Assembly (NCBI GenBank): GCA_031972835.1
Contig: DALYDX010000001.1
Location: 5,852-62,946, forward strand
Direction of reading: 5' to 3'
DNA: 57,095 bases
Origin: Minisyncoccota bacterium
GTDB lineage: Bacteria > Patescibacteriota > Minisyncoccia > Phycocordibacterales > UBA9973
Shown piece after piece: positions 31,563-57,095 of this stretch (its first letter is position 1; every line of letters starts with the position of its first letter). Made by a program: the position numbers and the translations under genes. The notes beneath the pieces are model-generated. The model made no database searches. It saw nothing but the letters and a program-made list of their open reading frames with translations, and was not told the DNA's origin.

Positions 31563-32040
31563 AAGGTGCGTTTTTGTTATTTAATCATAAAAATGGCGAG
31601 ATGTCAAAGGGAAAATAAATAGCCGATATTATCGGCTATTATTACTTTAAAATTCTTGATGCTTCATTGACGGCAAAGAATGCAGCTTCACTGGATTTTG
31701 GGTTTTTTCCAAGTTTTGTCCAGTCTACTTCATCACGCGCTTCGATTGTGTTGCTTGGTATTAGTGTAATTTCTTTTATCAATGCAAGTTGGTTTATGAT
31801 TTTTTTGTCTAACATATGCGTTTTTTTGTCAGTATAAAATAAAAAATAGGTGAGAGCAAGTATGAAGATGGAAGTCGGTTACAGATATTTTTCTGCTGAA
31901 AAATTCCTCGAACTCGCCTCGCACCAGTCGCGCTACGGCTTTCAACTCCCCACGAAAGCAAATCGGGAAAGTCTCTCCTTACAGGAGCAGTAAAGCTTCT
32001 CCCACGTGAAGCGTGCAGACACTTCATTCATTTCCACTAA

Positions 32041-37336: not shown

Positions 37337-37602
37337 TTTTTCAAAAGCCCGTAATAATTACGGGCTTTCGCATTTCTGCGACCCCGGCACCATACTTGGA
37401 CACTTTTAGTTTTCTTGTCGTCACGCATAATTTTCTGCTGAAAATTTGCGCGACCCCGCCTCGCGCCAGTCGCGCTCCGGCTTGGACAATTGATCCCATC
37501 AATGTCGTCACGGATAAAACACTCGCCGTCGCTCGTATTTTTCCGCGACCCCGACTCAGTAGTTTTTCTTGCTAGAAAAACATACTTCCGTCCTGGACTA
37601 GT

Positions 37603-37636: not shown

Positions 37637-37641
37637 TCTAG

Positions 37642-37715
37642 TCCACCCTCTTGGATTCGAACCAAGGACCCCAGAGGTATAAGCTCTGTGCTCTAACCAA
37701 CTGAGCTAAGGGTGG
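37642..37715 (-). tRNA. tRNA with anticodon UAU (tRNA-Ile reading AUA)
   Basis: Hand-folded minus strand: CCACCCT-TA-GCTC-AGTTGGTTA-GAGC-A-CAGAG-CTTATAC-CTCTG-GGGTC-CTTGG-TTCGAAT-CCAAG-AGGGTGG-A. It is 74 nt and CCA is not encoded. Confidence 0.85.
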
Positions 37716-42000: not shown

Positions 42001-43371
42001 TCTAAAATGAAAATTGAGTTTCCTGATATGAACCTCGTGCATGTCTATAAGGTTTTTGATGAGAAGCCTACAATAGGAGAAGTTAGAAAATATCTTGTTG
42101 ATTCTGTATTAGTTAGAAAACAAAAAGCAGGTATATCTAAATCTATAACAATTGTTAGTAATGATGCTGATTTGGAGGGTATAGACAAAGACTACGCGAA
42201 CCACATTTCTAAAGCGTTTAAAGAAGATGACCATCTCGATGCTGTTGGGGCTAAATGGGATTTTCCAAAGAATGATTTTGAAAAATTACCTATCCTGCAT
42301 GCCTCACAAAGACTTTGGCATTATTTCGATATCGTATTTAGATATAACTACATGAAATCTCCTGAACTCATCGGACGTAACTCTGCTTTTAGGTCTGGTA
42401 TATATGCTGCCATAGGAGGTTATAACGAGACTTCTAGGCTTGCAGAAGATCTGGAAATAGGTTGGCTTATAAAAAATGCTCGTAAATACGATGTGTCACG
42501 TATAAAATATTTGAATAATGCTAGCTTGAAATCAAATTCTAGACGCGCGGTAGGAAAGATGCTCTCAGGGGGACGCTTGATACAGCAGTATGGAGATTTC
42601 CATGAAAACGAAGAAGTAAGAAATGCCCCTCTAGAAGAACTCTTAAAAGATAAAAAAGATTTTGATTTGGAAGTATTTAAATTAGAAGTTCAATCTATCT
42701 ATGATTATTATAAAAAATGGAAGAAATCAAATGGAGGTTGGATAGATGATAAATATATTGATGAATCATTTGAGCGCGCAATGAGTTTTGTTGGAGTGAA
42801 GTTTTCCAAAGACAATGAAAATATAAATATATTAGACACATCAAAACTGGAAAATTCTCTAAATAAAAATATAGACAAATTAGTAGATGTAGCAGAAAAA
42901 GACAATGATTACACAATTGGAGATTTAGATACACCAGAAGTAAAGGTTGTAAAAAAATCTCCTAAAAAAGGGAAAGTTGGAAAAGCTGAAAGAAAAGAAA
43001 CAAAAACCAAAGAAACAGAAGGTTTATCTCTAAACAAAGATACAGATTTAATTTACAGTAGAATGATGAGTAATCCTTTGGATTTAAACACTGAGGTTGC
43101 AAGTAGAGTGAAGCGTTACAAGAAACCAACTTTTGTAATATTTGAACAAGACAAAACAAAACGTGCAGATTTCGAAAAACAGATCAAGGTTACACAGAAA
43201 AAGTATCCTGATGCATATATAGAATATGTAAAACTCCCTGATGATATGAGTACTATTTCTGGGGTTAGTGCAAATGAGTATATGAAATCTGTAATTGAAA
43301 ATAGTTCAAGTGAGGTAAAGTTAGATGCACGTGTTGAAAAACGTTTAATAAATCCAAAAATAACTTTCTAA
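39088..43371 (+). CDS. giant (1427 aa) membrane-associated protein containing a family-2 glycosyltransferase-like domain
   Basis: The region around residues 915-1150 (VVITLPAYLEGKNLEKTIRNY...VVILENHP...VSNDADLEG) resembles GT2 with a DxD motif. There are hydrophobic segments near residues 250-300 and 480-500. Confidence 0.6.
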   Translation: MDNINPNPQKKEKRKIVLVDTEHVAESEARDFADMSTTAEKSTLKGFKGFFKKMWKHNIAREYYHQKEIVKARKSIYEKENVFANQEIDKNAHKEAMDAIVERFESEYEDMIDREAGESKDKLPEGHETNALKSGLQYLIRRYASGEISEGSFEEEKKRQLAFFREAFPKALPSAKMFADNIFEIAKESRQAVEHGMSIDELDLDFDIVLGKAKSALRTEANFTVVDKAIDKIKRVPILGHLFNETTVALVASSFLFTSKKILSSKVASLITFGGSAVVASSFAGMIENMRVKAERRQHLRERAKGMTFEAGAERREEMEKTQYDMVNAKATIDQLTSLLASIKSEGAGNESERALQDKVNEMLAELSDLEARIKIGNEKKIDLIAYSNITEVEKEKKDLLTIRAEAKVELRRLLALYPSLRTPTGQHFDAYLTSQIEAEIRGLKGGEAGIEAKDKLFRKMKRKKVGAMMGKTFIAGLLIGTAAQEIGAAVSSEQQGLVDSIIGKEDVVGHSAHMTPLGGAAQEVRDLFTGHHMHMSMDNAHTFDLNGAHMNLPEGVDMVANPDGTVDILRDGAPFAEDVPLSFDADGSLTQASIDALRGHGIDASFEQLTVINGTEITESPSEYIDHHPDATQNADRTLWYDNDTPKPVFDQNELKLWWGAPGNDGIDADGNYVFNVEHMTSGGSFHDSLSVDAQKLLAEGKLKMQFSLSSETQDHVFQVPIDTNGNAIIDPDSEIGKLFFENSNGHAVFLGRYAEVVQSMGTVNGVEQVHVLATHVGHGLDSVKDTIPGPAGVNTIGVPVDYDIYPPPFIPVVGRRPLEPGVYKNFNTKVPLFVSSERGLGPYGYGYGYGSEGGDFGLLDRSKYDARMSKLLLKDSNLDVSKNDKKVIKEYLEKQDKEYLKELEEMIRDLPPMKDNIEVVITLPAYLEGKNLEKTIRNYAKMNNHEKFEVVILENHPKSKERDNTEEIISKMKIEFPDMNLVHVYKVFDEKPTIGEVRKYLVDSVLVRKQKAGISKSITIVSNDADLEGIDKDYANHISKAFKEDDHLDAVGAKWDFPKNDFEKLPILHASQRLWHYFDIVFRYNYMKSPELIGRNSAFRSGIYAAIGGYNETSRLAEDLEIGWLIKNARKYDVSRIKYLNNASLKSNSRRAVGKMLSGGRLIQQYGDFHENEEVRNAPLEELLKDKKDFDLEVFKLEVQSIYDYYKKWKKSNGGWIDDKYIDESFERAMSFVGVKFSKDNENINILDTSKLENSLNKNIDKLVDVAEKDNDYTIGDLDTPEVKVVKKSPKKGKVGKAERKETKTKETEGLSLNKDTDLIYSRMMSNPLDLNTEVASRVKRYKKPTFVIFEQDKTKRADFEKQIKVTQKKYPDAYIEYVKLPDDMSTISGVSANEYMKSVIENSSSEVKLDARVEKRLINPKITF

Positions 43372-43405
43372 AATAACCCCTACTTAACCGTTAAATTGTA
43401 AAATT

Positions 43406-44533
43406 ATGTCACAAGAAAATGAAAATCTGTCACCCTTGGATAAGCTGGAGGCGCTTAAAGAAAAAATAAAAGCAAAGAGCGATGAAGGAAAGCAGCAAAA
43501 ACAAGATGAAAGAGTAGAGGAACTCAAGGCTGAATTAGACAGCGAGAGAGTTTACAATGACAATCGAGCTAAAAAAAACAATGAAGATACTGCTCGCATT
43601 AACGAGCTCACCGCAGAATTGAAAGGACAATTTACCGAGAGAGATCGTCTGAAGAATGAAGGCAAGAAGGCAGCGGCGGAGCTAAGAAAAACAAAAGAAG
43701 GCCAGGAAATAATTGACGATAAAAAAGACAATGAATTTAAGCAGGAGATTTTTGGTGATACCATAAATGCACTGAAGGATATACAGGAATTTGTTAAAAA
43801 ACACAAGAAAGAATTTGACACTGAAATTGAAGAAAGGAAAAACAATATATCTTTAGGTGATAAAGCCAATCAGGAAACAAAAACTAGAAGAATAAAAGAG
43901 TTTAAAGAAAAATATCCTGAAATTGATGATATCCATAAGAAGATGGGGTATATGAAAGAGAGGCGAGACTGGCTTGTTAAGGAAAAAGAAAGTCTCCGAT
44001 CCTTCCTTTCAAGTCCAGAATTCACCCTATTTCTTGAAGATAAATTAGTACACAAGAAAAATGAATACAACAGAGATGTTCTTGTGGACGTAACTCTTGA
44101 AGAAGAGATAAAAAATCTCCGTACGCAGTTAGACGGTATGCGCAAGGAAGTCCATGATAAATATGAAGAGATAAGGAAAAAAGAACAGAAAGGAAAAAGT
44201 TGGCTAGAAGACAAAAAAGGATTCGATGAGAAGATAAGTAATCTTTTTGCAGAATTAAAAAAATACGAGAAGGAGCAAGAGGGAATTATTTTTCATGGAG
44301 ACAGAGGGATACAAAATCTAGTCAGCATAAAACAAGAGATAGAAGATAAGCTCTCTGGTTTTTTACGGGTTAACTTTAATTCTATTGAAGAAAGGGAAGC
44401 AGTGGAGAAAGGTAAGACTATACGAGGTCTCGTTGAGCATATTCTTTCAGTTGTAGAAAAGGAAATTGAAGAGAAAAAACTTTCAGAAGAAGAACAGTTG
44501 ATAAAAGACCTAAATGACGAACTGTGGAGATAG
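43406..44533 (+). CDS. hypothetical K/E-rich coiled-coil protein
   Basis: 375-aa highly charged ORF. Confidence 0.5.
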   Translation: MSQENENLSPLDKLEALKEKIKAKSDEGKQQKQDERVEELKAELDSERVYNDNRAKKNNEDTARINELTAELKGQFTERDRLKNEGKKAAAELRKTKEGQEIIDDKKDNEFKQEIFGDTINALKDIQEFVKKHKKEFDTEIEERKNNISLGDKANQETKTRRIKEFKEKYPEIDDIHKKMGYMKERRDWLVKEKESLRSFLSSPEFTLFLEDKLVHKKNEYNRDVLVDVTLEEEIKNLRTQLDGMRKEVHDKYEEIRKKEQKGKSWLEDKKGFDEKISNLFAELKKYEKEQEGIIFHGDRGIQNLVSIKQEIEDKLSGFLRVNFNSIEEREAVEKGKTIRGLVEHILSVVEKEIEEKKLSEEEQLIKDLNDELWR

Positions 44534-44535
44534 GT

Positions 44536-46716
44536 TTATTCAAAGTGCATGTCGCTTTGTCTCTCTCGGATTGCTTCGACAAGTGTAGGATAGTTAGCTA
44601 AAGCACAGTCTTTTTCAATTAGGATTCTCGCTTCATTTCGAGCTGCTTCCACCATTTTGATATTGCGGATTGCTTCCATGCCAAGGTCTGTGATGCCCCA
44701 TTGTTTTCCGCCACCGAGCTCACCTGCACCTCGGAGTGCTAGGTCTAGTTCTGCAAGTTCAAAACCACTTTTCGCAGAGACTAAAGCTTTTAGTCTGTCT
44801 GCAGTTTTTTGTGATTTTGCATCCGCAAAGAGGTAACAATACGCCTGATGATTGGATCTGATCACGCGTCCACGAAGTTGGTGAAGTTGGGCGAGTCCGA
44901 AACGTTCTGCTCCTTCGATTATGATGATAGTTGCATTCTCGACACTTACACCGACTTCCACAACTGAAGTCGCGCAGAGTATATCTATCTCGTGATTTAG
45001 GAATGATTCCATGACTTCTTCTTTCTTTTGTTTCGTCATTTTAGAATGCAGTACTCCGATTTCGTATTCCGGAAACACTTCTTTCTTTAATCTCTTCGCT
45101 TCTTCGGTTACAGATTTTGCAATCACCGCCATCTCTTTTTCTGGATCTGGTTCATCGATGCGTGGACATATCACGTAGAGTTGTCTGCCATTTTTTAATT
45201 CAGCACGGATTTTTTCATATGACTCATCACGTTTGTTGGAGGGGATTATTTCCGTGATGATGGGTTTTCGTCCCATGGGCATCTGGTCGAGAATCGTCAG
45301 GTCTAAGTCTCCATATATTGTGAGGGCGAGTGTGCGGGGGATAGGTGTCGCTGTCATAGAGAGCAGGTGTGGAGAAATAGTTTTACCATTTGATTCCTTG
45401 TGCGCGAGTTTACTTCTCTGCATGGTGCCGAAGCGGTGTTGTTCGTCTATAATCACGAGAGCAAGATGTTTAAACTTCACTGATTTTTGTATGAGTGTAT
45501 GCGTGCCTATAAGTATCGGTATCTCGCCGTTTTCAACCCATTTCAAAAGTTGCGTGCGAGAAATGCTTGTCCAGTTACCGACGTTTGAAGCGACTTTCGA
45601 TGGGAACTTTCTACATCCACTGCCTGTGATGAGTCCGATATTTATCCCGGTGTGTTCGAAATATCTGATAAAGTTTTCAAAAAGTTGTGTTGCAAGTATT
45701 TCTGTCGGAGCCATGTATGCGACTTGAAGCGATCCAAAAGTTTGCTTCATAGGTCGATTGGTGATGATCCCATACGACGCACTTGCTGCGACTGCAGTCT
45801 TACCACTACCTACATCACCTTCAAGTAGTCGAGCCATAGGATGGTCGCGTACTATATCGGCACGGATACCCTCGATTGCTTTCTCCTGGCCTTCGGTGAG
45901 TGGAAAGGGAAATCGTTTTGTGAATTCTAGTAGATCTTCTTTTTCGATTTTTATTTCATATGCATAATTCGTTTTAAATATATGCCGGTCTTGTTGTTTC
46001 TTGAGTTGGATCAAGAACACTTCTTCGAAAGCAAAACGTTTTCGTGCAGCTTCGGCATCGTTTTCATTTCGTGGAGTATGTATCCATACGAGTGCTGTGC
46101 CAAGCTTTGGGAGGTTATATTTTTTTAATATTGGATCAGGTATTGGATCGATTATAGAATTTTGTATTCCAGATTTGAATATTTTATCAATCGCATGAAA
46201 TATAAACCTTGATGTGACTCCACGACTCTCGGGGTATATAGGGTATCTGATACCTGCGCTCGTAGAGCCTTCTTTTACAAAAAGCGTATCGTGTATATCT
46301 ATAGGGAGTGTCGGAGTTTTTTCTATCTCAGGATTTGTAATCGTGAGACCGCTTTTGGTTTGGCTTATTTTACCGGTGACTTTCACACTATCGCCGACTT
46401 GAAACATTTTTGCGAGGTATGCCTGATTGAACCAGACGATACTAATAGTCCCAGTCTGGTCCTCGACGGTCGCTTCGCCCATAGGTACTTTTGTACGGAA
46501 AGATTTCTTTGTCTTTGCTCGCGTGATAGTACCGTGGATTGTAGCAATCTCACCGGGATTTAAGTCGCGGATAAAATGCAGTTCCGATATGTCTGAGTAA
46601 CGAGTAGGGAAGTGATATAGAAGTTCGTGGATAGTGTTTATACCCAGGCGCGAGAGCGCCTTCTTCTCGGCTTCGGCGAGCTTGAAATGTATATTTAAAG
46701 TGTCAGTTATTTTCAC
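44536..46716 (-). CDS. recG: ATP-dependent DNA helicase RecG
   Basis: GDVGSGKT, DEQHRFG and an OB-wedge-like N-terminus. RecG-length protein. Confidence 0.9.
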   Translation of the reverse strand: MKITDTLNIHFKLAEAEKKALSRLGINTIHELLYHFPTRYSDISELHFIRDLNPGEIATIHGTITRAKTKKSFRTKVPMGEATVEDQTGTISIVWFNQAYLAKMFQVGDSVKVTGKISQTKSGLTITNPEIEKTPTLPIDIHDTLFVKEGSTSAGIRYPIYPESRGVTSRFIFHAIDKIFKSGIQNSIIDPIPDPILKKYNLPKLGTALVWIHTPRNENDAEAARKRFAFEEVFLIQLKKQQDRHIFKTNYAYEIKIEKEDLLEFTKRFPFPLTEGQEKAIEGIRADIVRDHPMARLLEGDVGSGKTAVAASASYGIITNRPMKQTFGSLQVAYMAPTEILATQLFENFIRYFEHTGINIGLITGSGCRKFPSKVASNVGNWTSISRTQLLKWVENGEIPILIGTHTLIQKSVKFKHLALVIIDEQHRFGTMQRSKLAHKESNGKTISPHLLSMTATPIPRTLALTIYGDLDLTILDQMPMGRKPIITEIIPSNKRDESYEKIRAELKNGRQLYVICPRIDEPDPEKEMAVIAKSVTEEAKRLKKEVFPEYEIGVLHSKMTKQKKEEVMESFLNHEIDILCATSVVEVGVSVENATIIIIEGAERFGLAQLHQLRGRVIRSNHQAYCYLFADAKSQKTADRLKALVSAKSGFELAELDLALRGAGELGGGKQWGITDLGMEAIRNIKMVEAARNEARILIEKDCALANYPTLVEAIRERQSDMHFE

Positions 46717-46811
46717 CTATTCATTTTAGCTTATTTTGTAAGGTTTTCTTATCATTGACAGAACACTATATAATATGGTATAATACATTCAAACCAAATA
46801 AAAAACTGAAT

Positions 46812-47741
46812 ATGAAAAAAATCCTTAATATCGTTATTGTAGGCGTTTTAGCCTTGAGCTTTATCTTCGCATCGTGTTCCTCTAAAAAGGAGGACATGAA
46901 TACCTATCAACTTATTGCATCTGAGAAAAATAATCAGAAGGCAATGCGTCTAATTGAGGAATTTTTGTTGAATGACAAACAAATTAAAACAGCCTTTGAA
47001 AAACCCCTCCGTTTTGTGGACACGATGGATTTATACGAGGCCAGGTTCCAAAGATTTGTTCCAAATGATCCAAGGCCAATGGTGCTTGTGGAGATAGTGT
47101 TTAACAAAAAGATTATAGCTGAATTCAATCGTCGTGCTGATAATATGCCGATTAGGCAAAAAGCATTTCTGATTGATGCAATTGCGCATAATCACAGAAT
47201 CGACTCTAGCATTGCGGGTGATTTGGCGACAGAGTATGCAGAAGCAATCTTTCGTACGAACACCGCAGATAGTTTGCCAGGATTTAGTATCTGGCATCAT
47301 ACACCCAGGGTTTTGGCGTATTGCCCAAATAGTGAGCGAAAGTTGCTCGACAGCGCACACGCGTACGCTACAAGCTTGTATGATAAAAAATATCTACCAA
47401 TTATAGGTAGATACAAGAGACTTAGGGAAGCAACAGATCATTATGGTGTGCCGGACTATGGTTATGGTACTGCAAATCTGCAAGAAGCACTGAAGCAAAA
47501 GACTGTATCTCTCGAAGATAGAATGATAGCGAGTCCGTATTCATATTCATTCTCGGAACTAATGGCTCTTCCATACAATAGGAATCTTAGCCCTGAGTAT
47601 TATGCTTGTTTGGTTCTAAAAGCTAAGACATATGAAGACTGTCAGGACCTGTTAAGGGTAATACCTGATAGTCATGTAGCCATCCAAGACGCATGTACAA
47701 AAAAAGCCCAGAATATTCTGGGTATAGGACAATGTGAATAA
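46812..47741 (+). CDS. hypothetical lipoprotein
   Basis: MKKILNIVIVGVLALSFIFASC is a signal peptide with a lipobox. A TTGACA-N18-TATAAT promoter lies at 46755-46784. Confidence 0.55.
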   Translation: MKKILNIVIVGVLALSFIFASCSSKKEDMNTYQLIASEKNNQKAMRLIEEFLLNDKQIKTAFEKPLRFVDTMDLYEARFQRFVPNDPRPMVLVEIVFNKKIIAEFNRRADNMPIRQKAFLIDAIAHNHRIDSSIAGDLATEYAEAIFRTNTADSLPGFSIWHHTPRVLAYCPNSERKLLDSAHAYATSLYDKKYLPIIGRYKRLREATDHYGVPDYGYGTANLQEALKQKTVSLEDRMIASPYSYSFSELMALPYNRNLSPEYYACLVLKAKTYEDCQDLLRVIPDSHVAIQDACTKKAQNILGIGQCE

Positions 47742-47850
47742 GATTTTTTCAAATATTTAAACTGCAGATAATATCTGCAGTTTTTCTTTTGGTTAAATTA
47801 TGCTTGACATTATAGTACAAAATGTGCTATAATGCAGTCAAACGTAAACT

Positions 47851-48450
47851 ATGATAACTAAAAAACAAACAGTATTTTTAGCATTAATTTGCTTTACATT
47901 ATTGACTGTAATCTTAGCCTCTTGCACAAGCAAGTCGGATAGAAAGATGGAACTGCAAGAGCAACAGAAACCGGTAACAGCAGAGCCAGTTATAAAACCT
48001 GTTGAGATTCCGGTGGCAGCGATCCCAAAAGGAATCGTAACTTTCACTCCTGAAAAGATGGAGGTTGATCCGGTGTTGTACAATCAAAATGATTTGATTG
48101 GTGAAGGCCAAACACCGGGCACTAGCTATAAAGCGGGTATTTATTTCACAGCTGGCGACAAGGAATTAAAATTAGTTTTGTATGAGTATTACTATAATAG
48201 CCCGAAATATTATAATGATAGTGGAGAAATTAATGATGAGAGTAGAGAGCGCCAGTCTGAGGAAAAAGCTATTTTACAAAAGGCGAAGGACTGTTATACT
48301 GCGATCAAAAATTCTTCGTTTTCAGATTTGATCATCGAAGATCAAAATGGCCGTGTGATTACTGTAAAGAAAAAAATTTCGGTGACTGAAAAAAAAGATG
48401 GTAATGCCATCATTCGTCAGGACTCAGTTATCCAACTGTATCCGTACTGA
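47851..48450 (+). CDS. hypothetical lipoprotein
   Basis: Signal peptide plus lipobox (LTVILASC). Confidence 0.55.
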   Translation: MITKKQTVFLALICFTLLTVILASCTSKSDRKMELQEQQKPVTAEPVIKPVEIPVAAIPKGIVTFTPEKMEVDPVLYNQNDLIGEGQTPGTSYKAGIYFTAGDKELKLVLYEYYYNSPKYYNDSGEINDESRERQSEEKAILQKAKDCYTAIKNSSFSDLIIEDQNGRVITVKKKISVTEKKDGNAIIRQDSVIQLYPY

Positions 48451-48570
48451 AAATTTCCTAAAATATAAATATTTGAAAACACCAAGTCTAACTTGGTGTT
48501 TTTTATTTTTCAATATTAACCATGTTTGACAAGTTATATATAAAATGTATAATATTAAAAAAATATAAAA

Positions 48571-49245
48571 ATGAAAAAAAACAAAACCTCGCTTCTTGCT
48601 GTGTTTGCGTTTGCAACTATGGCATTACTGGCTTCTTGTGCCCACACATCTGCCGAAGGGCAAGATGACTCAGGCGCTATGACAGAACCAGTCACCAATT
48701 TCCCTGACAGCTCATCTATGGTTGCCCCAGTTGCACCTCTTGAGCAAGAAAATACTGCTATTCTCCATACCGAGGAGGTATCGCCAAATGAAAAGGTAAG
48801 CCCTACTCTTCCAAAAGAAGAAACAAAGAACACGACATATATAACTCATGTTCAGGTGGAAGAACCATTGGAAAAAGTTTTCACTGAAGGCAAGCGCGCC
48901 GGTGTTGAGTATAGCTCAGCCGTTTATTTTATTGATTCAGTCGATAGTGAAGGGCGAGAATATCCATTGTATTTTGAGTACAAAGCATTCAATACTCCCA
49001 CAAAGACTGATTCTGCCGAAGTAGAAAGCAAGAAAGCGCTTGAGGTTGCTAGAAAAACTTTCGAGTACATCATCAATCTGGAGAATCCTTCAGATCTGTA
49101 TCTCGTAACAGATGCCGAGGGAGAAATCCTCGAGGTATGGACAAAGTTGCATGCAAAGAAAGAAAAAATAGGGAACGTGACCGTGCGTGATCCGGATCCA
49201 GTAATGATCTGGCCGGTGTACGATGTTCCACAAGAAAAAAAATAA
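48571..49245 (+). CDS. hypothetical lipoprotein, distant paralog of 47851-48450
   Basis: Lipobox MALLASC. It shares the pattern (A/S)xxYF...(L/Y)xxEYxxxN with the previous ORF. Confidence 0.55.
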   Translation: MKKNKTSLLAVFAFATMALLASCAHTSAEGQDDSGAMTEPVTNFPDSSSMVAPVAPLEQENTAILHTEEVSPNEKVSPTLPKEETKNTTYITHVQVEEPLEKVFTEGKRAGVEYSSAVYFIDSVDSEGREYPLYFEYKAFNTPTKTDSAEVESKKALEVARKTFEYIINLENPSDLYLVTDAEGEILEVWTKLHAKKEKIGNVTVRDPDPVMIWPVYDVPQEKK

Positions 49246-49294
49246 ATAAAAAATCCCTCCGCATAATCGGAGGGATTTAATTTTTCCAGATGCT

Positions 49295-49759
49295 TTATTT
49301 ATCTGCCAAAACAAACACTGTACCTTTCATTGTTGGATGCAAGTGATCATGGAACTCATATGTTCCAGCTTTTTCAAATTTGAAAGTATAGATTTCTCCT
49401 GTTGAGTAACCTTTCTTTGCATCAAATGCACTAAATTCAGTATGTGTTGGGTGTGGATCTGAAGCAACCCACATCAAGCCTGATGTATCATTTTTGAATG
49501 ATACACTGTCGCCTTCGTCTATAGTTACAGTTATCGGACTAAAGCCAAGTTGTCCATAGTCTAGGACAAAAGTTTTATCTTCATCGACACTTGTATTCGT
49601 GTCTACTGTGGTGGTATTTGTGTTTATATTTGTATTTGTTTCAGAAGGGTTGTTCGTATTGTCTTCTAAGTTGACCATATCCTTGTCTTTACCAAATATA
49701 ATAAATCCTCCTACTACTATAAGGATAATAAGCCCCAAAATTGCATATGTTTTGTTCAT
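49295..49759 (-). CDS. cupredoxin-like secreted protein
   Basis: N-terminal TM/signal segment. The C-terminus GTYEFHDHLHPTMKGTVFV resembles plastocyanin-family C-x-x-H-x-x-x-x-M but has Asp where Cys is expected. Confidence 0.45.
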   Translation of the reverse strand: MNKTYAILGLIILIVVGGFIIFGKDKDMVNLEDNTNNPSETNTNINTNTTTVDTNTSVDEDKTFVLDYGQLGFSPITVTIDEGDSVSFKNDTSGLMWVASDPHPTHTEFSAFDAKKGYSTGEIYTFKFEKAGTYEFHDHLHPTMKGTVFVLADK

Positions 49760-49855
49760 AAGTGATATATTCGGTTAATCTACTAATACTTTAATTGTAC
49801 GCTTATGCCTACAAAGCACAATGAGACAAAAAAATCAGGGGATTTACCCCTGATT

Positions 49856-50224
49856 TTATCCTAGTATACTTTTTATTTTGTCTGACAGTTCGTCTAGTGT
49901 GAAGTTGGACTTTATCATGAAGTCATTTGCTCCGAGCTCTCGAGCACGAGTGACATCTTTGTCTTCGGAAAGATTTGAGAATATTATAACTGGTGTTTTT
50001 GCTAGAGCCGCATTTGAGCGGATTTTCTCTAACACCGTGAATCCATCCATAGTAGGGAGTACAAGGTCTAGTAGTATAAAATCAGGCTTTTCACTATCAG
50101 CGATCTTCACTGCATCTTCGCCATCGCTGGCTGTAAGCACTTGAAAACCATCTTTTGATAATTTACCCGCAGCTAACCCTTGGAGGAATGAATCATCTTC
50201 AACTATAAGTATTTTCTTTGGCAT
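49856..50224 (-). CDS. single-domain response regulator (CheY-like receiver)
   Basis: ILIVEDD...DLVLPTMDG...K receiver motifs. Confidence 0.85.
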   Translation of the reverse strand: MPKKILIVEDDSFLQGLAAGKLSKDGFQVLTASDGEDAVKIADSEKPDFILLDLVLPTMDGFTVLEKIRSNAALAKTPVIIFSNLSEDKDVTRARELGANDFMIKSNFTLDELSDKIKSILG

Positions 50225-50248
50225 AAGTCTTATTGTACTCGGAGTGTA

Positions 50249-50998
50249 TTATTGGTGCAAGGGGAGTGAAAAGTTGAAAGAAGTCCCTTCTTCTGTGGAA
50301 TTGAAACTGATTTTTCCACCATGTCGTTCGACAATGTGTTTTGTTGTGTATAGTCCTAGGCCTGATCCGATTGAGTCTTTCACCTTAGCATTTGTAGCTC
50401 TATAGAATTTTCCGAAGATTTGATCTTGCTCGGACTGTGGGATACCGATTCCTGTGTCTTTGACTGATACTTCGATTCCGCTTTCGTTTGCATGGATTGA
50501 TATCAGGACTTTGTCTCCAGTGTTGCTGTATTTGATTGCGTTCTCGATTAGGTTTTGGATAACAACGCGGATCTTTTCCTTATCGCATGTTATTGATTTG
50601 ATAGGGTTTTCTGGTTTTAGAAATATTGTTTCAATACCTTTTTTGAAAGCTTCGCTCGAAAAATCAAAAAGTGTCTCATCTATCAGTTTTACTATATCGA
50701 CTTCTTCAAAATTGTATGTCAGTGAGGTCGCATCAGCATGATTGAGCGAGAGCATTTCGTTCACAAGTGTGAGCATGCGTTCGTTTGAATCACTTGCGCG
50801 TTTCATGAAGTCATTCTGTTCAGGAGTAAGCTCACCAAAATCTTTGTCTAAAAACATGCGAAGTATCCACTTCACAGCGGAAAGGGTAGTGCGGAGTTGG
50901 TGGGCTGATATGGATATCCAATTACTCTTTAGAGCATTTTGTTGCTTGAGTTCTTCGTTTTCTTTTTTAAGTTGTTCGATTTCTTCTGTTTCGGTCAT
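50249..50998 (-). CDS. sensor histidine kinase (cytoplasmic, coiled-coil + HisKA + HATPase_c)
   Basis: H-box ISAHQLRTTLSAV, an N-box NLIENAIKYS and a G-box GSGLGLY. I prefer the ATG at 50998, because the longer track ORF runs into the divergent promoter. Confidence 0.8.
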   Translation of the reverse strand: MTETEEIEQLKKENEELKQQNALKSNWISISAHQLRTTLSAVKWILRMFLDKDFGELTPEQNDFMKRASDSNERMLTLVNEMLSLNHADATSLTYNFEEVDIVKLIDETLFDFSSEAFKKGIETIFLKPENPIKSITCDKEKIRVVIQNLIENAIKYSNTGDKVLISIHANESGIEVSVKDTGIGIPQSEQDQIFGKFYRATNAKVKDSIGSGLGLYTTKHIVERHGGKISFNSTEEGTSFNFSLPLHQ

Positions 50999-51115
50999 GG
51001 AAGCATTATACCTTGCGAGTGGATGTAGTACAAAATCTGCGGGCTCTGTGGTAGACCGTTGGAATCTATTTATTGACAAAATTGCCACAAAATGTATTAT
51101 GAAAAAAAATATAGA

Positions 51116-51400
51116 ATGGAACAAACTAATACTCTGTTGTTAATAACAACAGATACAGAAGGCCAAGCAATAGGTACTTTGCAAAGTGCTCAACCTGATT
51201 TAGGAAATGTTATCTTGGTCAGCTCCAGAGATGCCCTTAAAGAAGCATTAGAAGATCAGACTAATGGAACATATTTCTATAAAGTAATTTATAGCTATCT
51301 ACTAAATGAAGAACTGATTAATGCTAAAAAAGAATTTAATGTAAAAGATGGGACGTATAAAAAGGTAGAAGGAAAAATATCAAATTATTTAGATAATTGA
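51116..51400 (+). CDS. hypothetical protein
   Basis: The TTGACA (51073-78)-N16-TATTAT (51095-100) promoter overlaps the track start, so I prefer the next ATG at 51116. Confidence 0.4.
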   Translation: MEQTNTLLLITTDTEGQAIGTLQSAQPDLGNVILVSSRDALKEALEDQTNGTYFYKVIYSYLLNEELINAKKEFNVKDGTYKKVEGKISNYLDN

Positions 51401-51450
51401 TGAAGTAAATGATTAGTTGGAATACTAGTCATTTTTTATTTGTAAAATCT

Positions 51451-51868
51451 GCGGAGTCTATTGTACAAAATTCGAACTTATTTTGAAAGCAATCCCGATG
51501 AAAGCTAATCGCACGCGCGGAGCGCGTGGTGGCTCTAAATTAAGCCGTACGCTCCACGAAAGCCCCGCCACCGCCTCGCTTCACTCGGCAACCCCAAAAA
51601 GAAAAAATGTCTCTTGCTTTTCTGTTTTCGCGGGGGTGATTTTTTCTAAAATGGAAAGGACATTTTTCTTTTTGGGGTTCTGCCTTCCAAGTATTCAGGC
51701 AGTGTGGCGGGGCTTCAATTCGGACTCGGTTTTGCGAAAATTATTTTCTGGGGTATTGGATTTTCGCAAAACCGAGACTAATTTGTTTTTGGATTTTGTT
51801 CGCGCGGAGGAGGGGTCTGGGGAGGAATCCGCGCGGGCTTCTGTGTTTTTTGGCTGGGTGGGGGGCTA
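51451..51868 (+). repeat. left arm of a perfect 418-bp inverted repeat (GC-rich, internally hairpin-rich)
   Basis: I compared it block by block with the reverse complement of 55412-55829 and every block I checked was identical. Confidence 0.95.
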
Positions 51869-52004
51869 CAACCAAAATTGTTATTATGCTATGAGTTATA
51901 AAAAGTGTTATAATACTTTTGTTAGCCAAGTGGTGTGGATAAACGCAATTGAGGTAATTTTTTGATGTCGAATATCATTTTTAATTAAATATTTAAATAT
52001 TATT

Positions 52005-55000
52005 ATGAAGCATGAAGTACTCTCTCTCTCTCGTAAAACCGCCAAGTTTTTTTGCTTGGTTTTGATTTTACTGCAAGTATTTTATGGCTTTGCTCCAGTA
52101 GTATTTGCAGCAACTTCAACTTGGGATTTTTTAAATTCTTCCGACTATACTTTTGATAATACAAAAATAGAATTTTCAGGTGGGCAAGCTCAACTTAAAG
52201 CGACAAGTACCCCTGCTTGGTATTCAACATCATGGACAAAACGAAAAGCAGTAACGATAACTGGTTCTTCTGCCGGAGCGCAAACGAATTATCAAGTAAA
52301 AATTACTGTCCCATACGATGCTGATATGCAAGCGGATTATGATGATATTCGCTTCACATCATCCGATGGACAAACACTTTTAGATTACTATCTCGAATCA
52401 AAAACAAATTCCTCGACCGCCGACTTTTGGGTTGAGGTGCCATCAATCCCTGCATCGCCCGATACAGTGGCGGTGTATATGTATTATGGAAATTCCAGCG
52501 CCAGCTCGGTGTCAAGCGGAGCCAATACCTTTATTTCGGGAACAGATTTTGTGCAGGATGATGGATTTTCCTATCGCGACAATGGAACAAGTGAAAGCTA
52601 TGGCGACAGTACAGGACAGATTCGTAGTAATGGGGGGCAACTCTCTTTAGTAGGAGTTGACAGAATTAGTGATAGTTATGTAGCTAATAATAGAAAAGCT
52701 AACGGAGCAAGTATTGTTGGTTCTGTCGTGGACAGCACGGCACTGAATGACCCCGAAGACGTACTCATCGATGGAGATTATGTGTACATACCGACCAGAG
52801 CTGGTGGAAAGTTGAGTGTATATAATATCTCTAATCCCGCTTCTCCAACATTTGTCAGTAGCTTTACCGATAGTGATTTGACCGAAGCCGTAGGCGTTGC
52901 CAAAAATGGAAACACGATTTACTTGGTCTCTTGGCATAATCACAAGTTGCTAATTTTAGATGCAACCGATCCGTCAAATATCACTAAAACTTCTTCAATT
53001 GAAATTGGAACGACCGAAGGCGGTGGTGACCCTGATGAATTAAGAAAAGTATTCTATTTAGACGGATATGCATATGTTACTCACAGCCACGATCAAAAAC
53101 TTTATATCGTAGATGTTTCCAATCCTGCATCGCCGTCAATTACTGGTAGCGTCGCGACAGGTGATGGGGCGTTTGCGGTTTTTGTAAAGGGAAATTATGC
53201 ATACGTCGGTGGCTGTTTCGTCGGCTCGTCGTTAAAAGTGATTGATGTATCTAATAAGACCGCCCCATCAGTAGTGAAAACTCTTTCAAGTGGAAATTAT
53301 TCTTGTACTGCTGGTTTCGCAAATAGCGGTAATAATTTGTATGCTGTCTACTACAGTAGTAATACTTTTGTGACATTTGACATTTCCGATCCTGCTAATA
53401 CTTCTCAAATTGGGATTTTGAGTAATTCGTCGCTTAACAGCCCTAATCGTTTAGATGTCTTTGGAAATACCGCCTATGTTGCTTCCGCTGGAGGCGATGC
53501 AATAGTTCAGGTCAATATTACTGATCCAACGAATCCGACTTTGAGTACTATAACGGCAAACGTTCTTTTGGATCGGGCGTACGGCGTTAAATATTCTGAG
53601 GGAAAAGTCTTTGCAGTAGGGCGCGCCGCCGATAGTCTTGTAATACTCGATCCATCAACTATTGATGAAGGAAGCGAAGATGTGAATGTAAACGTATCGG
53701 ATAATTTTTCTGTCCGGTCAAAGTTTAGATTAACAGCGGCGACGGCCGGCGCATGGCTCCCAGTGACGGGTATCAGCGCGGACGGTAGCGCAATCAATTC
53801 GGGGGCGAGTGCTTACAGTCTCAATCCTATTTGGTTTAATAATACGTTGCAGGTGATAGAATTTTTTGGCGCAGGAGGCACGTACTACAAACAAGCCGCC
53901 AGTGCAGTTTCAACGTCACTTAACACAACATATATTACAGAATTAAAGAAAGTTGGAAGTAATGCAACCTTATCTGTTTACCAGACAGACGGGACATTAG
54001 TTGGTTCATCCGTAATTTCCTCTCTTACCAACTCCAGCATTGAGTACAAATGGTTAATGCCATATCAAAACACAGCGTCTAATGGCAACTGGGGATCAGG
54101 CAAAACAACAACTCAAGATATATATTTCTCATTTTTAAGAAATTATGTATCCCCCGAGCCAACCTACAGTATTGGTTCAGAAGTGAATATATATCCTAGT
54201 GACAATCCAACAGTCCAACCTACTTCTGCCACTCCTTTCACTTCACTTTCAGGTTTTGTCGAAACCTCAACACTCAACAGCGGAGCAATAAAATACCAAA
54301 TCTCAAATGACGGAGGTACGACTTGGTATTGGTATAGTTCAGGTTGGACTACAACCAACACTGGATACACAGAAGCAAACACTGCAAGTGATGTAAATTC
54401 TAATATTGCTACGTTTCCTGTTGGAAGCGGATCATTTTTATGGAGAGTATATCTACATTCTGATGGCACGCAGTTGGTACAACTTGATAATATTAACTTA
54501 ACATATATTAGCGATGCGACTGCTCCCGTTCTCTCTTTAGGATCGCCGTCTAACACGCTTGCACACGGAACAACAGGCACAACACTTTCTCTTACTACGG
54601 ATGAAAATGCGACTTGTAAATACGGAACCATTTCTGGTACAGCGTATGCTTCCATTGCTAGTACATTTACAACCACTGGCGGGACTTCACACAGTGCTTC
54701 ACTAACTGGTTTATCAAATGGCACTAGTTATACTTATTATATTCGTTGCGAAGACGAACAAAGTAATAGTAATTCTAATGATTATACAATATCTTTTTCT
54801 GTCGCAAACCCACCAAGCAGTGGAGGAAGTGGTGGATTTTCGGCTCCATATCCGACGGCACCAGCAGGAGGATTTACCGCAACTAGAGATATAACTAACT
54901 CTCAAAATAAAACTGTTTTACATTTTGGTTTTGGTAATGATATTACAAACATTGCTATTTCAGAAAATGCAAACTTCTACCCTGCCACTTATATAAATGC

Positions 55001-55394
55001 AACAACCTCTATTGAGTGGACAGCCACTACTACTAAAATACTTTATATAAAATATTGCAATCGATACGGCAGATGTTCAAACCCTATTTCACTACAGATC
55101 AACGCTTATACTCCAATCGTTTCCAATTCATATAAATTTTACAAAAACCTTTCGTATCGCATGACAAATTCAGACGTGAAAGAATTGCAAAAATATCTCA
55201 ATACGCACGGATTCATTGTTGCGCCAAGTGGTGCCGGGTCTCCGGGTAAGGAGACAAATTATTTCGGCCTACTAACCTACAGAGCAGTTATTAAATTCCA
55301 AGAAGCCAACGCCTCTGACATTTTGACACCAATCGGTCTTAAAAAAGGAACTGGATATTTCGGACCAAGCACTCGTGCTTTCGTGAATAAATAA
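52005..55394 (+). CDS. large secreted/surface protein: DUF2341-like N-domain, LVIVD-type beta-propeller repeats, C-terminal peptidoglycan-binding domain
   Basis: Signal/TM segment. WTKRKAVTI...DYDDIRFTSSDG..LDYYLE...FWVEVPSI...VYMYYGN is DUF2341-like. Repeated GNYAYV...L.V.DVSN...P units occur. The C-terminus NSDVKELQKYLN..G...G.FG..T..AV..FQ is PG_binding_1-like. Confidence 0.7.
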   Translation: MKHEVLSLSRKTAKFFCLVLILLQVFYGFAPVVFAATSTWDFLNSSDYTFDNTKIEFSGGQAQLKATSTPAWYSTSWTKRKAVTITGSSAGAQTNYQVKITVPYDADMQADYDDIRFTSSDGQTLLDYYLESKTNSSTADFWVEVPSIPASPDTVAVYMYYGNSSASSVSSGANTFISGTDFVQDDGFSYRDNGTSESYGDSTGQIRSNGGQLSLVGVDRISDSYVANNRKANGASIVGSVVDSTALNDPEDVLIDGDYVYIPTRAGGKLSVYNISNPASPTFVSSFTDSDLTEAVGVAKNGNTIYLVSWHNHKLLILDATDPSNITKTSSIEIGTTEGGGDPDELRKVFYLDGYAYVTHSHDQKLYIVDVSNPASPSITGSVATGDGAFAVFVKGNYAYVGGCFVGSSLKVIDVSNKTAPSVVKTLSSGNYSCTAGFANSGNNLYAVYYSSNTFVTFDISDPANTSQIGILSNSSLNSPNRLDVFGNTAYVASAGGDAIVQVNITDPTNPTLSTITANVLLDRAYGVKYSEGKVFAVGRAADSLVILDPSTIDEGSEDVNVNVSDNFSVRSKFRLTAATAGAWLPVTGISADGSAINSGASAYSLNPIWFNNTLQVIEFFGAGGTYYKQAASAVSTSLNTTYITELKKVGSNATLSVYQTDGTLVGSSVISSLTNSSIEYKWLMPYQNTASNGNWGSGKTTTQDIYFSFLRNYVSPEPTYSIGSEVNIYPSDNPTVQPTSATPFTSLSGFVETSTLNSGAIKYQISNDGGTTWYWYSSGWTTTNTGYTEANTASDVNSNIATFPVGSGSFLWRVYLHSDGTQLVQLDNINLTYISDATAPVLSLGSPSNTLAHGTTGTTLSLTTDENATCKYGTISGTAYASIASTFTTTGGTSHSASLTGLSNGTSYTYYIRCEDEQSNSNSNDYTISFSVANPPSSGGSGGFSAPYPTAPAGGFTATRDITNSQNKTVLHFGFGNDITNIAISENANFYPATYINATTSIEWTATTTKILYIKYCNRYGRCSNPISLQINAYTPIVSNSYKFYKNLSYRMTNSDVKELQKYLNTHGFIVAPSGAGSPGKETNYFGLLTYRAVIKFQEANASDILTPIGLKKGTGYFGPSTRAFVNK

Positions 55395-55411
55395 TTTCTT
55401 TTTTCGTAATT

Positions 55412-55829
55412 TAGCCCCCCACCCAGCCAAAAAACACAGAAGCCCGCGCGGATTCCTCCCCAGACCCCTCCTCCGCGCGAACAAAATCCAAAAACAAATT
55501 AGTCTCGGTTTTGCGAAAATCCAATACCCCAGAAAATAATTTTCGCAAAACCGAGTCCGAATTGAAGCCCCGCCACACTGCCTGAATACTTGGAAGGCAG
55601 AACCCCAAAAAGAAAAATGTCCTTTCCATTTTAGAAAAAATCACCCCCGCGAAAACAGAAAAGCAAGAGACATTTTTTCTTTTTGGGGTTGCCGAGTGAA
55701 GCGAGGCGGTGGCGGGGCTTTCGTGGAGCGTACGGCTTAATTTAGAGCCACCACGCGCTCCGCGCGTGCGATTAGCTTTCATCGGGATTGCTTTCAAAAT
55801 AAGTTCGAATTTTGTACAATAGACTCCGC
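55412..55829 (-). repeat. right arm of the perfect 418-bp inverted repeat
   Basis: Reverse complement of 51451-51868. Confidence 0.95.
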
Positions 55830-56110
55830 CAAAAAACGAAATCGGATTTTAGAGCCGAAATGGGGTCGCGCCGAAGGCGCGACACTAATGCATTCCCCCC
55901 GCCGAATTCAGAATCCAAAAGGGTTTTCCACGCTCCGCGTGGCTCCTCGTTTGCCAATACAAAATAAAAAATGGTAATATTGGGTTGCACCAACTTTAGA
56001 CACTTTCGGCTTTTTATTTGCTTGAGCATCTAGACGGGCGACTGTGTTCAATTTTGCTGAAAGGTAAAGTTGGTGCAACATGGTCGCCCTTTTAGGTTTT
56101 TAAACATATT

Positions 56111-57095
56111 ATGAATAATCAAACCAAAAAGTTTTTCATATATACTCGCAAGTCTACCGATGATAAAGATAGACAAGTGAGAAGCATTTCGGATCAACTG
56201 GCCGAACTCAAGGAGTTAGCGATTAAGGAACAAATTGAGGTCATTGATATTTTCGTGGAAAAACAAACCGCGAAGATTCCGGGTCGGCCAGTCTTTAATG
56301 AAATGCTTCTCCGCATGGAAACTGGTGAAGCAAATGGAATTTTAGCATGGCACCCCGATCGACTTGCGAGAAACTCGGTAGACGGAGGAAAAATTATCTA
56401 CCTCGTTGATACCAAAGTTATTTTGGATTTAAAATTTTCAACTTTTTGGTTTGATCCAACTCCACAAGGAAAGTTCATGCTCTCAATTGCATTTTCGCAG
56501 TCCAAGTACTATGTGGATAACTTGTCGGAGAATATCAAGCGTGGTCATCGTCAAAAATTGAAGGATGGTATTTGGCCTCAAATGTCCCCGCTGGGCTATG
56601 TAAATGTGAAAGGTGCTGGAATAGTACCTGATGAAAATATTGCTCCGTTAATCAAGAAAACATTTGAGGCCTATGCAACTGGAAATTTCACTTTGCGCCA
56701 ACTACACGATAAGTTTAATGCTCTTGGATTGAGTAGAAAGAATGGAAAGGTGCTTTCCGTTTCCAACTACCAACAAATTTTGAGAAATCCGATTTTCACA
56801 GGCTTAATGAGATATGGTGGTGAAATCTACGAAGGAAAGCACAAACCGATTATCACAAAGAAACTTTTTGATTCCGTTCAAGAAGTGATGATGAGAAAAT
56901 CTAAACCTCACTCCAAAGGACTGAAACCATTTTTGTATAGAGGATTTTTCCGTTGCGGAGAGTGCGGTTGCTTCATCACCACCGAGCAACAAAAAGGTCA
57001 TAATTATCTCCGCTGTACCAAACGGAGAAATCCTTGTTTGCAAAAATATGTCCGTGAAGAAATCATCACTTCTCAAATTCAAAAGGAAATCAAAA
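56111..57095 (+). CDS. large serine recombinase (partial; runs off the right edge)
   Basis: Translated by hand as MNNQTKKFFIYTRKSTDDKDRQVRSISDQ... (catalytic Ser context YxRxSt..Q). A recombinase domain and a CGECGC...C zinc-ribbon region follow. There is no stop before the window end. Confidence 0.8.
   Translation, partial: MNNQTKKFFIYTRKSTDDKDRQVRSISDQLAELKELAIKEQIEVIDIFVEKQTAKIPGRPVFNEMLLRMETGEANGILAWHPDRLARNSVDGGKIIYLVDTKVILDLKFSTFWFDPTPQGKFMLSIAFSQSKYYVDNLSENIKRGHRQKLKDGIWPQMSPLGYVNVKGAGIVPDENIAPLIKKTFEAYATGNFTLRQLHDKFNALGLSRKNGKVLSVSNYQQILRNPIFTGLMRYGGEIYEGKHKPIITKKLFDSVQEVMMRKSKPHSKGLKPFLYRGFFRCGECGCFITTEQQKGHNYLRCTKRRNPCLQKYVREEIITSQIQKEIK

Follow-up and report, generated by a model that had tools for sequence, protein, structure and literature searches.

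Large serine integrase elements, such as those of phiC31, Bxb1, A118, SPbeta (SprA), the staphylococcal cassette chromosome SCCmec (CcrAB) and Tn4451 (TnpX), insert site-specifically through a short core shared with the target, leaving hybrid junctions where an empty site had been. In the streamlined genomes of Prochlorococcus, tycheposons are small cargo-carrying elements which insert at tRNA genes, form arrays and occur as excised subpopulations, with 910 of 937 using tyrosine recombinases (bioRxiv 10.1101/2020.12.28.424599). Here we describe a locus with features of both. In a 57,095-nt stretch of a Minisyncoccota bacterium genome (contig DALYDX010000001.1; the whole stretch is termed the window and all positions refer to it), a surface-protein gene lies between perfect 418-nt inverted repeats, next to the gene of a large serine recombinase with the three-domain organisation of the integrases above.

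We consider it highly probable that 51451 to ~57.7 kb is one ~6.2-kb integrative element at the 3′ end of a tRNA-Ser gene, with the surface-protein gene as cargo. The layout would read flank / arm A – cargo – arm A′ / arm B – recombinase – arm B′ / tRNA-Ser, with the right end of the window copy (B′ and the tRNA) extrapolated past the window end. That the gene might be cargo of an element mobilised by the recombinase was one suggestion of the original prediction for this DNA, and it is borne out by an empty site, by identical copies of the element beside other flanks and by a layout conserved across a recombinase family. The host group, the candidate phyla radiation (CPR) or Patescibacteria, makes up a large share of bacterial diversity, has tiny genomes and almost no genetic tools, and its mobilome is poorly known.

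Geometry of the inverted repeat and its presence in reads

The two arms, predicted to be exact reverse complements, are 418 nt each, 100% complementary and separated by 3543 nt (repeat search and direct string comparison). Direct string comparison also shows that identity breaks off sharply at all four edges. A perfect 418-nt match cannot arise by chance, and the pair is the sole long inverted repeat of the 57-kb window, the arm having no further copy within it. The arms are composed of successive hairpins and have a G+C content of 0.49, compared with 0.40 in the cargo and 0.385 in the window; Rfam searches of the arm (gathering and E-value thresholds) returned just chance miRNA-like hairpin matches. 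A domain search identified a single open reading frame (ORF) in the enclosed DNA, which also holds one promoter, as predicted, and the recombinase ORF starts 281 nt past the right arm, where ~280 nt had been noted. The principal features are as follows.

51451–51868, no strand: left arm (arm A), the putative left end of the element and P-arm of its attachment site, joined to the chromosomal flank at junction J1.
51451–51456, no strand: core GCGGAG (CTCCGC on the other strand), common to the tRNA-Ser 3′ end (attB) and the element's site.
51455–51508, plus strand: last 17 recombinase codons and stop, SLLYKIRTYFESNPDES followed by a stop, with a mirror copy at 55772–55825 on the minus strand; these are the outer 54 nt of each arm.
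52005–55394, plus strand: cargo gene for an exported protein of 1129 aa, in which DUF2341 and LVIVD repeats occur along with a peptidoglycan-binding domain (PG_binding_1) and a stretch resembling FN3.
55412–55829, no strand: right arm (arm A′), inverted relative to arm A and meeting arm B at junction J2.
55830–55945, no strand: arm B (~116–120 nt), the recombinase leader, whose reverse complement encodes the C-terminal ...EPRGAWKTLLDSEFGGGN...FVFWR.
56111–57094, plus strand: large serine recombinase, of which the first 328 aa fall inside the window; the catalytic serine is in the motif YTRKST.

At least 20 public sequencing runs from 9 studies contain the stretch 51000–56200, and those designated X1–X12 were examined as k=31 unitigs. 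In independent runs the inner segment is a single 3603-nt unitig which ends exactly 30 nt inside each arm. Arm unitigs have about twice the depth of the cassette (cassette versus arm: X1, 19.4 and 38–50; X4, 4.6 and 9.2; X5, 19.1 and 42.1; X7, 41.1 and 86–93; X9, 11.4 and 23.5). The three best source runs give flank and cassette equal depth (19.1/19.4, 22.8/23.8 and 15.4/14.3), and X1 has a unitig that passes from the flank into the arm at full depth. With the inner unitig intact and the arms at double depth in independent runs, the repeat is real and not an artefact of a collapsed or chimeric assembly.

The recombinase fragment carries an N-terminal resolvase domain (PF00239, E = 3.3e-18, residues 9–153), in which the motif FIYTRKSTDD can be read, followed by PF07508 (Recombinase, E = 9.5e-14) and PF13408 (Zn_ribbon_recom, E = 5.2e-7). 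By domain content the enzyme is assigned to the large serine recombinases of integrase type, and not to the small invertases of ~190 aa with a C-terminal helix-turn-helix; most full-length relatives at 83–94% identity have 494–574 aa.

Mobility of the element and its empty site

The original prediction had looked to the flanks of related DNA for presence or absence of the cassette; in the runs, the cassette lacks its left flank in some and an empty site occurs in others. The 10 kb left of the arm (41401–51400) occur at near-identity only in the four runs of the source study. Studies other than the source study contributed X4, X5 and X6 (one activated-sludge run and two freshwater runs). In these the 3603-nt cassette is 100% identical and the recombinase stretch 55933–56873 is also identical, at a depth matching the cassette, but the region 44000–51428 is missing, even at 80% likeness. 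The identical element also has other outer neighbours, namely TGGAACTCCCCGCTGAGC... in X4 and X11, ...ACAGCACACTTTTGTGTGCTG in X7 and ...CAGTGGGTCACTCCG in X8. Cassette and recombinase are found essentially identical beside at least four different flanks; the left flank lies outside the mobile unit, and cassette and recombinase are mobile.

An empty site was detected in the source runs X2 and X3, where a short unitig covering 51427–51456 continues into GATGTGAGATTCGAACTCACGGAG and not into the arm. Read on the opposite strand, this is the T-arm and acceptor end of a tRNA, and the joint reads (reverse complement) ...GTGAGTTCGAATCTCACATCCTCCGC / AGATTTTAC. The variant branches off at 51456, at a depth of 6.1 compared with 9.9 and 12.7 for the occupied junction. 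The junctions are attB, ...CACATCCTCCGC / AGATTTTAC; J1, ...ATAGACTCCGC / AGATTTTAC; and J2, ...ATAGACTCCGC / CAAAAAACG, so that the hybrids in the window are arm A–CTCCGC–flank (J1) and arm A–CTCCGC–arm B (J2). We place the crossover within CTCCGC because this core is common to the tRNA-Ser 3′ end and the element's site. For the empty target expected of an integrative element, the left half is thus seen directly (X2 and X3), and the tRNA half is matched to the right end only via relatives and other copies. No target-site duplication is present, as the flanks AAATCT and CAAAAA share none.

On the right-hand side of the cassette, depth increases at 55945 and every run shows a branch in the path there ('AAAAAGTACGGT'), which is what the inner end of arm B should produce; a second copy (B′) would lie in the recombinase 3′ end, past the window. 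In X9 a single unbranched 501-nt unitig runs arm A–core–arm B at a depth of 23.5, against 11.4 for the cassette, with no branch to flank or tRNA, and X5 is similar on the arm side. This hints at a circle with two arm A–core–arm B joints and would fit equally well a cargo between two recombinase units, as in the related locus L107 below. A share of circles calculated from junction depths was dropped, the depths of short unitigs being too noisy. The tRNA-like loose ends at 55824 are not alternative insertion sites but arm B′/tRNA joints of this and related elements.

A layout conserved across a recombinase family

A search at E ≤ 1e-20 gives the 328-aa fragment over 7900 relatives, among them over 120 clusters at 83–94% identity. 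Every named relative belongs to the Patescibacteria, including Minisyncoccia and Shapiro-, Pace-, Kaiser- and Liptonbacteria. We fetched 22 loci for nine of the relative proteins. In most of them a tRNA-Ser on the opposite strand overlaps the recombinase 3′ end, and where the contig is long enough a tRNA-Ser or its remnant adjoins B′; in L098 a tRNA lies on the 5′ side of the recombinase.

Both modules are bracketed by inverted repeats in the relatives. An arm-B pair (120–182 nt, complementarity 77–100%) surrounds the recombinase in 17 of the 17 loci analysed, where complementarity is 83–100%, and also in L107–L110; one copy stops ~21 nt before the usual ATG and the other lies in the 3′ coding end, adjoining the last bases of the tRNA. 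One hairpin of arm B keeps its stem by compensatory changes at three pairs, with a loop that is always C-GAA-G. An arm-A pair (60–219 nt, 91–100%, some lengths being cut by contig ends) surrounds a cargo of 1.9–2.3 kb in all nine loci with more than 2 kb upstream. This cargo usually comprises a small XRE-type regulator and a restriction-modification system, HNH protein, trypsin-like protease or other gene.

Neighbouring repeats in the relatives overlap by 4–7 nt, an overlap which is the core. The junctions are J1, arm A–CCGC–flank; J2, arm A–CCGC–arm B; and J3, tRNA–CCGC–arm B, and the full set could be read in L096, L101, L102, L103 and L105. J1 and J3 are the two hybrid products expected when arm A–core–arm B recombines with tRNA–core–flank, and J2 is an intact inverted copy of that same attachment site inside the element. 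The arm of the window is homologous to the family arms in its inner hairpin (55431–55479) and its outer 50 nt, modules shared with both arms in those family loci (of the loci fetched by then) which have an arm-A pair. Its greater length comes from two long mid-arm hairpins. The stretch 55830–55962 is homologous to the family arm B. Tandem arrays also occur among the relatives, and in L107 a cargo has recombinase units on both sides.

These loci point to the following scheme. The free form would carry the attachment site arm A–core–arm B, and integration would place arm A at one end of the element and arm B′ at the other, leaving the second, inverted site (arm A′–core–arm B, 55829/55830) intact within it. 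A whole gene lies between long inverted repeats because the cargo bay would have a copy of arm A on either side, the end copy and the spare.

A recombinase gene probably split by its own attachment site

The arms encode part of the recombinase. In the window, the reverse complement of 55830–55945 reads ...TVLFEPRGAWKTLLDSEFGGGN...FVFWR and the left arm extends it in frame as SLLYKIRTYFESNPDES and a stop; this tail can be read only when the recombinase 3′ arm B′ is joined to an arm A. The arm of L004, a contig of a metagenome-assembled genome (MAG), encodes CLLYKIRTYFESNPD and a stop. In the relatives the recombinase ORF passes through arm B′ and the core, and if it is continued into the tRNA its tail is antisense-tRNA sequence (RGRDLNPR...). 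When B′ was joined by script to arm A of the same locus (eight constructs), the ORF in most loci stopped after 16–18 residues, with a tail conserved even though the DNA differs (YSLYKIRTFFE[ST]NPDEEI or CLLDKVR[MN][FY]FEQNPND, each followed by a stop). The tails were unrelated in two of the eight (L089 and L098), and the upstream DNA of L092 was too short to reach a stop. The arm ORFs 51483–51965 and 55411–55797 were also considered as candidates and are not in the conserved frame, which is 51455–51508.

This coding suggests that each 418-nt arm comprises the final 17 codons of a split recombinase gene together with a stretch resembling its 3′ untranslated part. From outside inward, arm A consists of the core, the last 17 codons and stop of the recombinase, hairpins and a cargo-facing, terminator-like hairpin with a T-run. 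As arm A carries the last codons, the recombinase gene would be divided by the attachment site of its own element. Once integrated, the gene would read into antisense tRNA, and the conserved tail would be regained only by joining B′ to an arm A, through excision or a flip of the recombinase segment.

Arm identity and cargo orientation

Two MAG contigs, L002 (97% amino acid identity) and L004 (82%), carry the same cargo in the same arm–gene–arm layout. Within each genome (window, L002 and L004) the arms are identical or differ by 1 nt, and between genomes they differ at many sites, the inner boundary included. Such concerted evolution indicates that recombination or gene conversion between the arms continues, in line with what the perfect identity had led the original prediction to propose. 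Exchange between the arms would keep them identical, and crossovers between them would flip the cargo.

Opposite orientations of the cargo are indeed found in relatives. In L090 and L091, from two Joint Genome Institute (JGI) samples and with an identical recombinase protein, a 1.6-kb stretch of the cassette is 100% identical and lies in opposite orientations, and the 3′ end of the cargo gene faces the arm–flank joint in L004 and the arm–arm B joint in the window. The position of the tRNA on the 5′ side of the recombinase in L098 is a further sign of inversion. The view of the locus as an invertible segment is therefore supported as far as the two orientations and the concerted arms go, but not as a dedicated expression switch. 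A 1395-nt unitig in X12 which runs from arm B through the arm into the 5′ end of the gene resembles a flipped form; it was discarded, as a low-coverage k=31 path across a 418-nt repeat links nothing.

A second perfect inverted repeat of 189 nt is present in L004 (5153–5341 and 9618–9806), with its outer copy cut by the contig end. It is the 5′ part of a 249-aa gene and encloses a MoxR-like AAA_5 gene and a VWA gene.

Cargo gene, promoters and leader insert

The regulatory and repetitive features in and around the cargo are listed below.

51831–51853, plus strand: terminator-like hairpin and T-run facing into the cassette, with a mirror copy at 55427–55449 on the minus strand.
51906–51914, plus strand: TGTTATAAT, extended -10 box of the cargo gene, within the unique segment.
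52020–52032, plus strand: (CT)n tract in codons 6–10 of the cargo gene, whose length differs among copies.
55964–56107, no strand: insert of 144 nt within the recombinase leader; its perfect 15-bp inverted repeats lie at 55984–55998 and 56065–56079.

The cargo promoter lies inside the cassette, as had been noted, at 51906–51914 and not at the position first given (51913–21). It occupies the same place in the relatives, where the box is duplicated (L002) or reads TTGACG-17-TATAAT (L004). With its promoter, start and stop all inside the segment and identical arms on both sides, the cargo should be expressed alike in either orientation, which agrees with the earlier view that a simple promoter flip is unlikely. 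The recombinase gene is co-directional with the cargo here, and orientation could determine whether transcription from the cargo promoter reads through into it.

The 3603-nt cassette unitig is identical or nearly so across X1–X9. Relative to the window, the (CT)n tract differs by −2 nt in run X7 and by +4 nt in L002, where the ORF is kept via a second ATG; L004 has a (GA)n tract at this place. Two ATGs lie upstream of the tract, 7 nt apart and in different frames (ATGAAGCATGAAG), hence the ORF is open in two of the three length classes. The tract resembles a contingency tract of the slipped-strand type. A scan of JGI metagenome contigs with the cargo protein yielded no close relative that has flanks, and exact-protein look-ups with the cargo of the window, L002 and L004 gave nothing beyond the pieces already found.

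An alignment shows that all relatives lack the 144-nt leader insert, and so do other copies in the same metagenomes, in which 55963 is joined directly to 56108. Combined with a conserved TTGCCA, the insert yields a TG-extended -10 (TGGTAATAT) in front of the recombinase (TTGCCA-18-TAATAT, 55951–55980).

Alternative explanations

A dedicated phase-variation switch is the first alternative, with the adjacent recombinase acting as a Hin/Gin/Cin-like invertase that toggles the surface protein or its fusion. Long inverted repeats beside a serine recombinase recall the P1 C segment, relatives show both cargo orientations, and the cargo is a surface protein with a variable (CT)n tract. Against this, inversion would switch neither promoter nor gene ends, as these are internal and the surroundings are the same for 418 nt either way, and the enzyme is an integrase-type large serine recombinase and not a 190-aa invertase. 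The whole unit is also mobile, with an empty site, and unrelated cargo occupies the same frame in relatives (restriction-modification systems, HNH proteins and proteases). We regard a switch of this kind as very unlikely.

Equally improbable, in our judgement, is an independent foldback or composite transposon which lies beside an unrelated recombinase element, moves in trans and has the arms as its own terminal inverted repeats. The homology between the window and L004 ends exactly at the outer end of the arm, and L004 has no recombinase on its assembled side; its other arm is cut by the contig end, however, so a recombinase could lie there. The outer ends of the arms encode the conserved tail of the recombinase itself and the arm–arm B joint is conserved family-wide, hence the foldback-type mobile unit raised in the original prediction gives way to arms made of the recombinase gene 3′ end and an attachment-site arm, present twice, and not of transposon ends. 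Both cassette and recombinase variant match the window exactly in X4–X9, and their depths agree in X4–X6 and X9. In addition, the arms bracket the cargo only and not the mobile unit, and the flanks lack the duplication expected of an insertion sequence or foldback element.

As a third alternative, the locus could be the left end of a prophage, with the recombinase as phage integrase and the surface-protein gene as a lysogenic-conversion 'moron'. A 73%-identical integrase precedes endolysin, transglycosylase and tail-like genes on an IMG/VR contig, and the cargo has its own promoter. The recombinase, however, ends in a tRNA-Ser in 9 of 14 relatives (more than 84% identical, with contig past the 3′ end), housekeeping genes follow directly in several (L092, L101 and L105), and the window has no phage genes, only cargo and recombinase lying between the sites. 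Searches of phage records (megablast) and of IMG/VR (arm pattern) gave no match, and we consider a prophage end extremely unlikely. An assembly artefact, in which a collapsed or chimeric repeat fuses two organisms, would suit a window that ends inside the recombinase gene, where assemblies fragment, and left and right parts that are very differently distributed across runs, but it has next to no probability given the X1 unitigs spanning the flank/arm junction, the equal flank and cassette depths in three source runs, the doubled arm depth in many independent runs and the same layout in the independent MAGs L002 and L004.

Several observations nevertheless weigh against the integrative element as we describe it. 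The tRNA–arm B joint with the exact arm B comes, in the source runs, from a lone low-depth contig (X1, depth 4.57) with a slightly different tRNA; arm B and arm B′ may thus not be the same, or the right end, which lies past the window, may have another arrangement. The empty site could belong to a co-existing strain which never held the element and so not reflect excision, X1 lacks it despite coming from the same sample as X2, and the depths of the short junction unitigs fail to sum cleanly. For orientation, the contrast between L090 and L091 relies on short-read assemblies across ~190-nt repeats, and, because a 418-nt repeat is too long for k=31 unitigs to phase, the reads confirm neither orientation of the window copy. 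Finally, typical phage serine integrases are not known to recombine attP with attP, attL or attR, so any catalytic use of the spare site is conjectural. The right end of the window copy, the flipping enzyme, the role of the tail and the circular form are all steps that we infer.

Beyond the integrative element itself, a bolder proposal is possible but doubtful. The spare inverted site and the split gene may form a control device that works without a separate directionality factor, in which the integrated enzyme would lack its 17-residue tail and a B/B′ flip or excision would restore the full-length enzyme and so set direction. The excised form may be a two-repeat circle which isomerises like the yeast 2-micron plasmid, and the family may be a distinct 'cassette shuttle', perhaps the main gene-exchange vehicle of Patescibacteria.

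The element family is abundant, with thousands of high-identity recombinase relatives in several classes, confined to Patescibacteria, and it moves surface, restriction-modification and protease genes. Recent activity is indicated by a base-identical 6-kb element in rivers, lakes and treatment plants between 2016 and 2025, with varied flanks and a co-existing empty site. If our reading is correct, it shows how these organisms exchange genes and offers a ready integration system for CPR genetics, composed of a recombinase and a defined tRNA-Ser target. It would also represent a serine-integrase organisation not found in the searchable literature, as full-text searches returned no description of a retained inverted site, of inverted-repeat bracketing of both modules or of a recombinase gene split by its own site.

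Other features of the window and of related loci

Elsewhere in the window, ~1 kb at 9267–10260 has no ORFs and consists of 43/86-nt periodic units alternating TGTGAAAAACAA and TGTCTTTAAACAA / TGTTTTTAGACAA, with variable spacers of ~10 nt; this is not a typical CRISPR array. A tRNA-Ile with a genomically encoded UAU anticodon is located at 37641–37715. A 64-nt GC-rich block occurs twice (31878–31941 and 37420–37483, 83% identical), beside the tmRNA gene and the tRNA-Ile gene.

Among the related loci, L093 (4329–11400) contains a second tandem unit, in which 197-nt arms surround a type I restriction-modification cassette and are followed by 133-nt arms and a tRNA-Ser. The 133-nt arms enclose 1.5 kb without a called gene, and the whole looks like a two-element array whose inner recombinase has decayed. 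A second large serine recombinase of 508 aa is present in L102 (8143–9703) and L104 (3842–5402), and its 3′ end overlaps a tRNA-Glu in antisense, which suggests sister elements aimed at other tRNAs. In L109 and L110 (2193–7978), on a Patescibacteria contig, the family recombinase and tRNA-Ser adjoin type IV secretion-like genes (T4SS pilin, TrbC, PrgI, TraC-like and VirB4-like). The IMG/VR contig L087 (1–10939) starts inside the 73%-identical recombinase, and the endolysin, transglycosylase and tail-like genes that follow suggest that related enzymes also serve CPR phages.

Comparison with known systems

Like SCC elements, the family of the window carries cargo and forms tandem arrays. It departs from known serine integrase elements in having a second, inverted and intact site with long arms, with cargo and recombinase each bracketed by inverted repeats. 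Its recombinase ORF spans the attachment site and would lose a conserved tail on integration, and its target is the last bases of tRNA-Ser. At ~6 kb it also lacks phage genes, conjugation genes and a second recombinase gene, and no separate directionality factor is evident.

The invertible P1 C, Mu G and Salmonella H segments (Cin, Gin and Hin) resemble the element in having a serine recombinase by or in an inverted-repeat segment found in both orientations. In the P1 C segment the inverted repeats measure 0.6 kb and have the crossover sites outermost. Cin, Gin and Hin, however, are small invertases which require an enhancer and Fis, and their segments switch alternative gene ends or a promoter. 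The gene in the element is complete and self-contained, and its enzyme is of integrase type, with about 500–560 aa.

With the yeast 2-micron plasmid (FLP/FRT), an excised element would share two long target-bearing inverted repeats and two unique segments, one with the recombinase. FLP is a tyrosine recombinase, however, and the 2-micron plasmid has an origin and partition genes, none of which is recognisable in the element. Integrons likewise place a recombinase beside rows of mostly promoter-independent cassettes split by structured repeats. They use the tyrosine recombinase IntI and folded attC sites, whereas the sole recombinase here is of serine type, the repeats are arm copies with tRNA-derived cores and the cassettes have their own promoters.

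Many tycheposons carry replication genes, unlike the element, and no double inverted-repeat design has been described for them (bioRxiv 10.1101/2020.12.28.424599). Tycheposons are nevertheless the nearest concept for small cargo shuttles at tRNAs.

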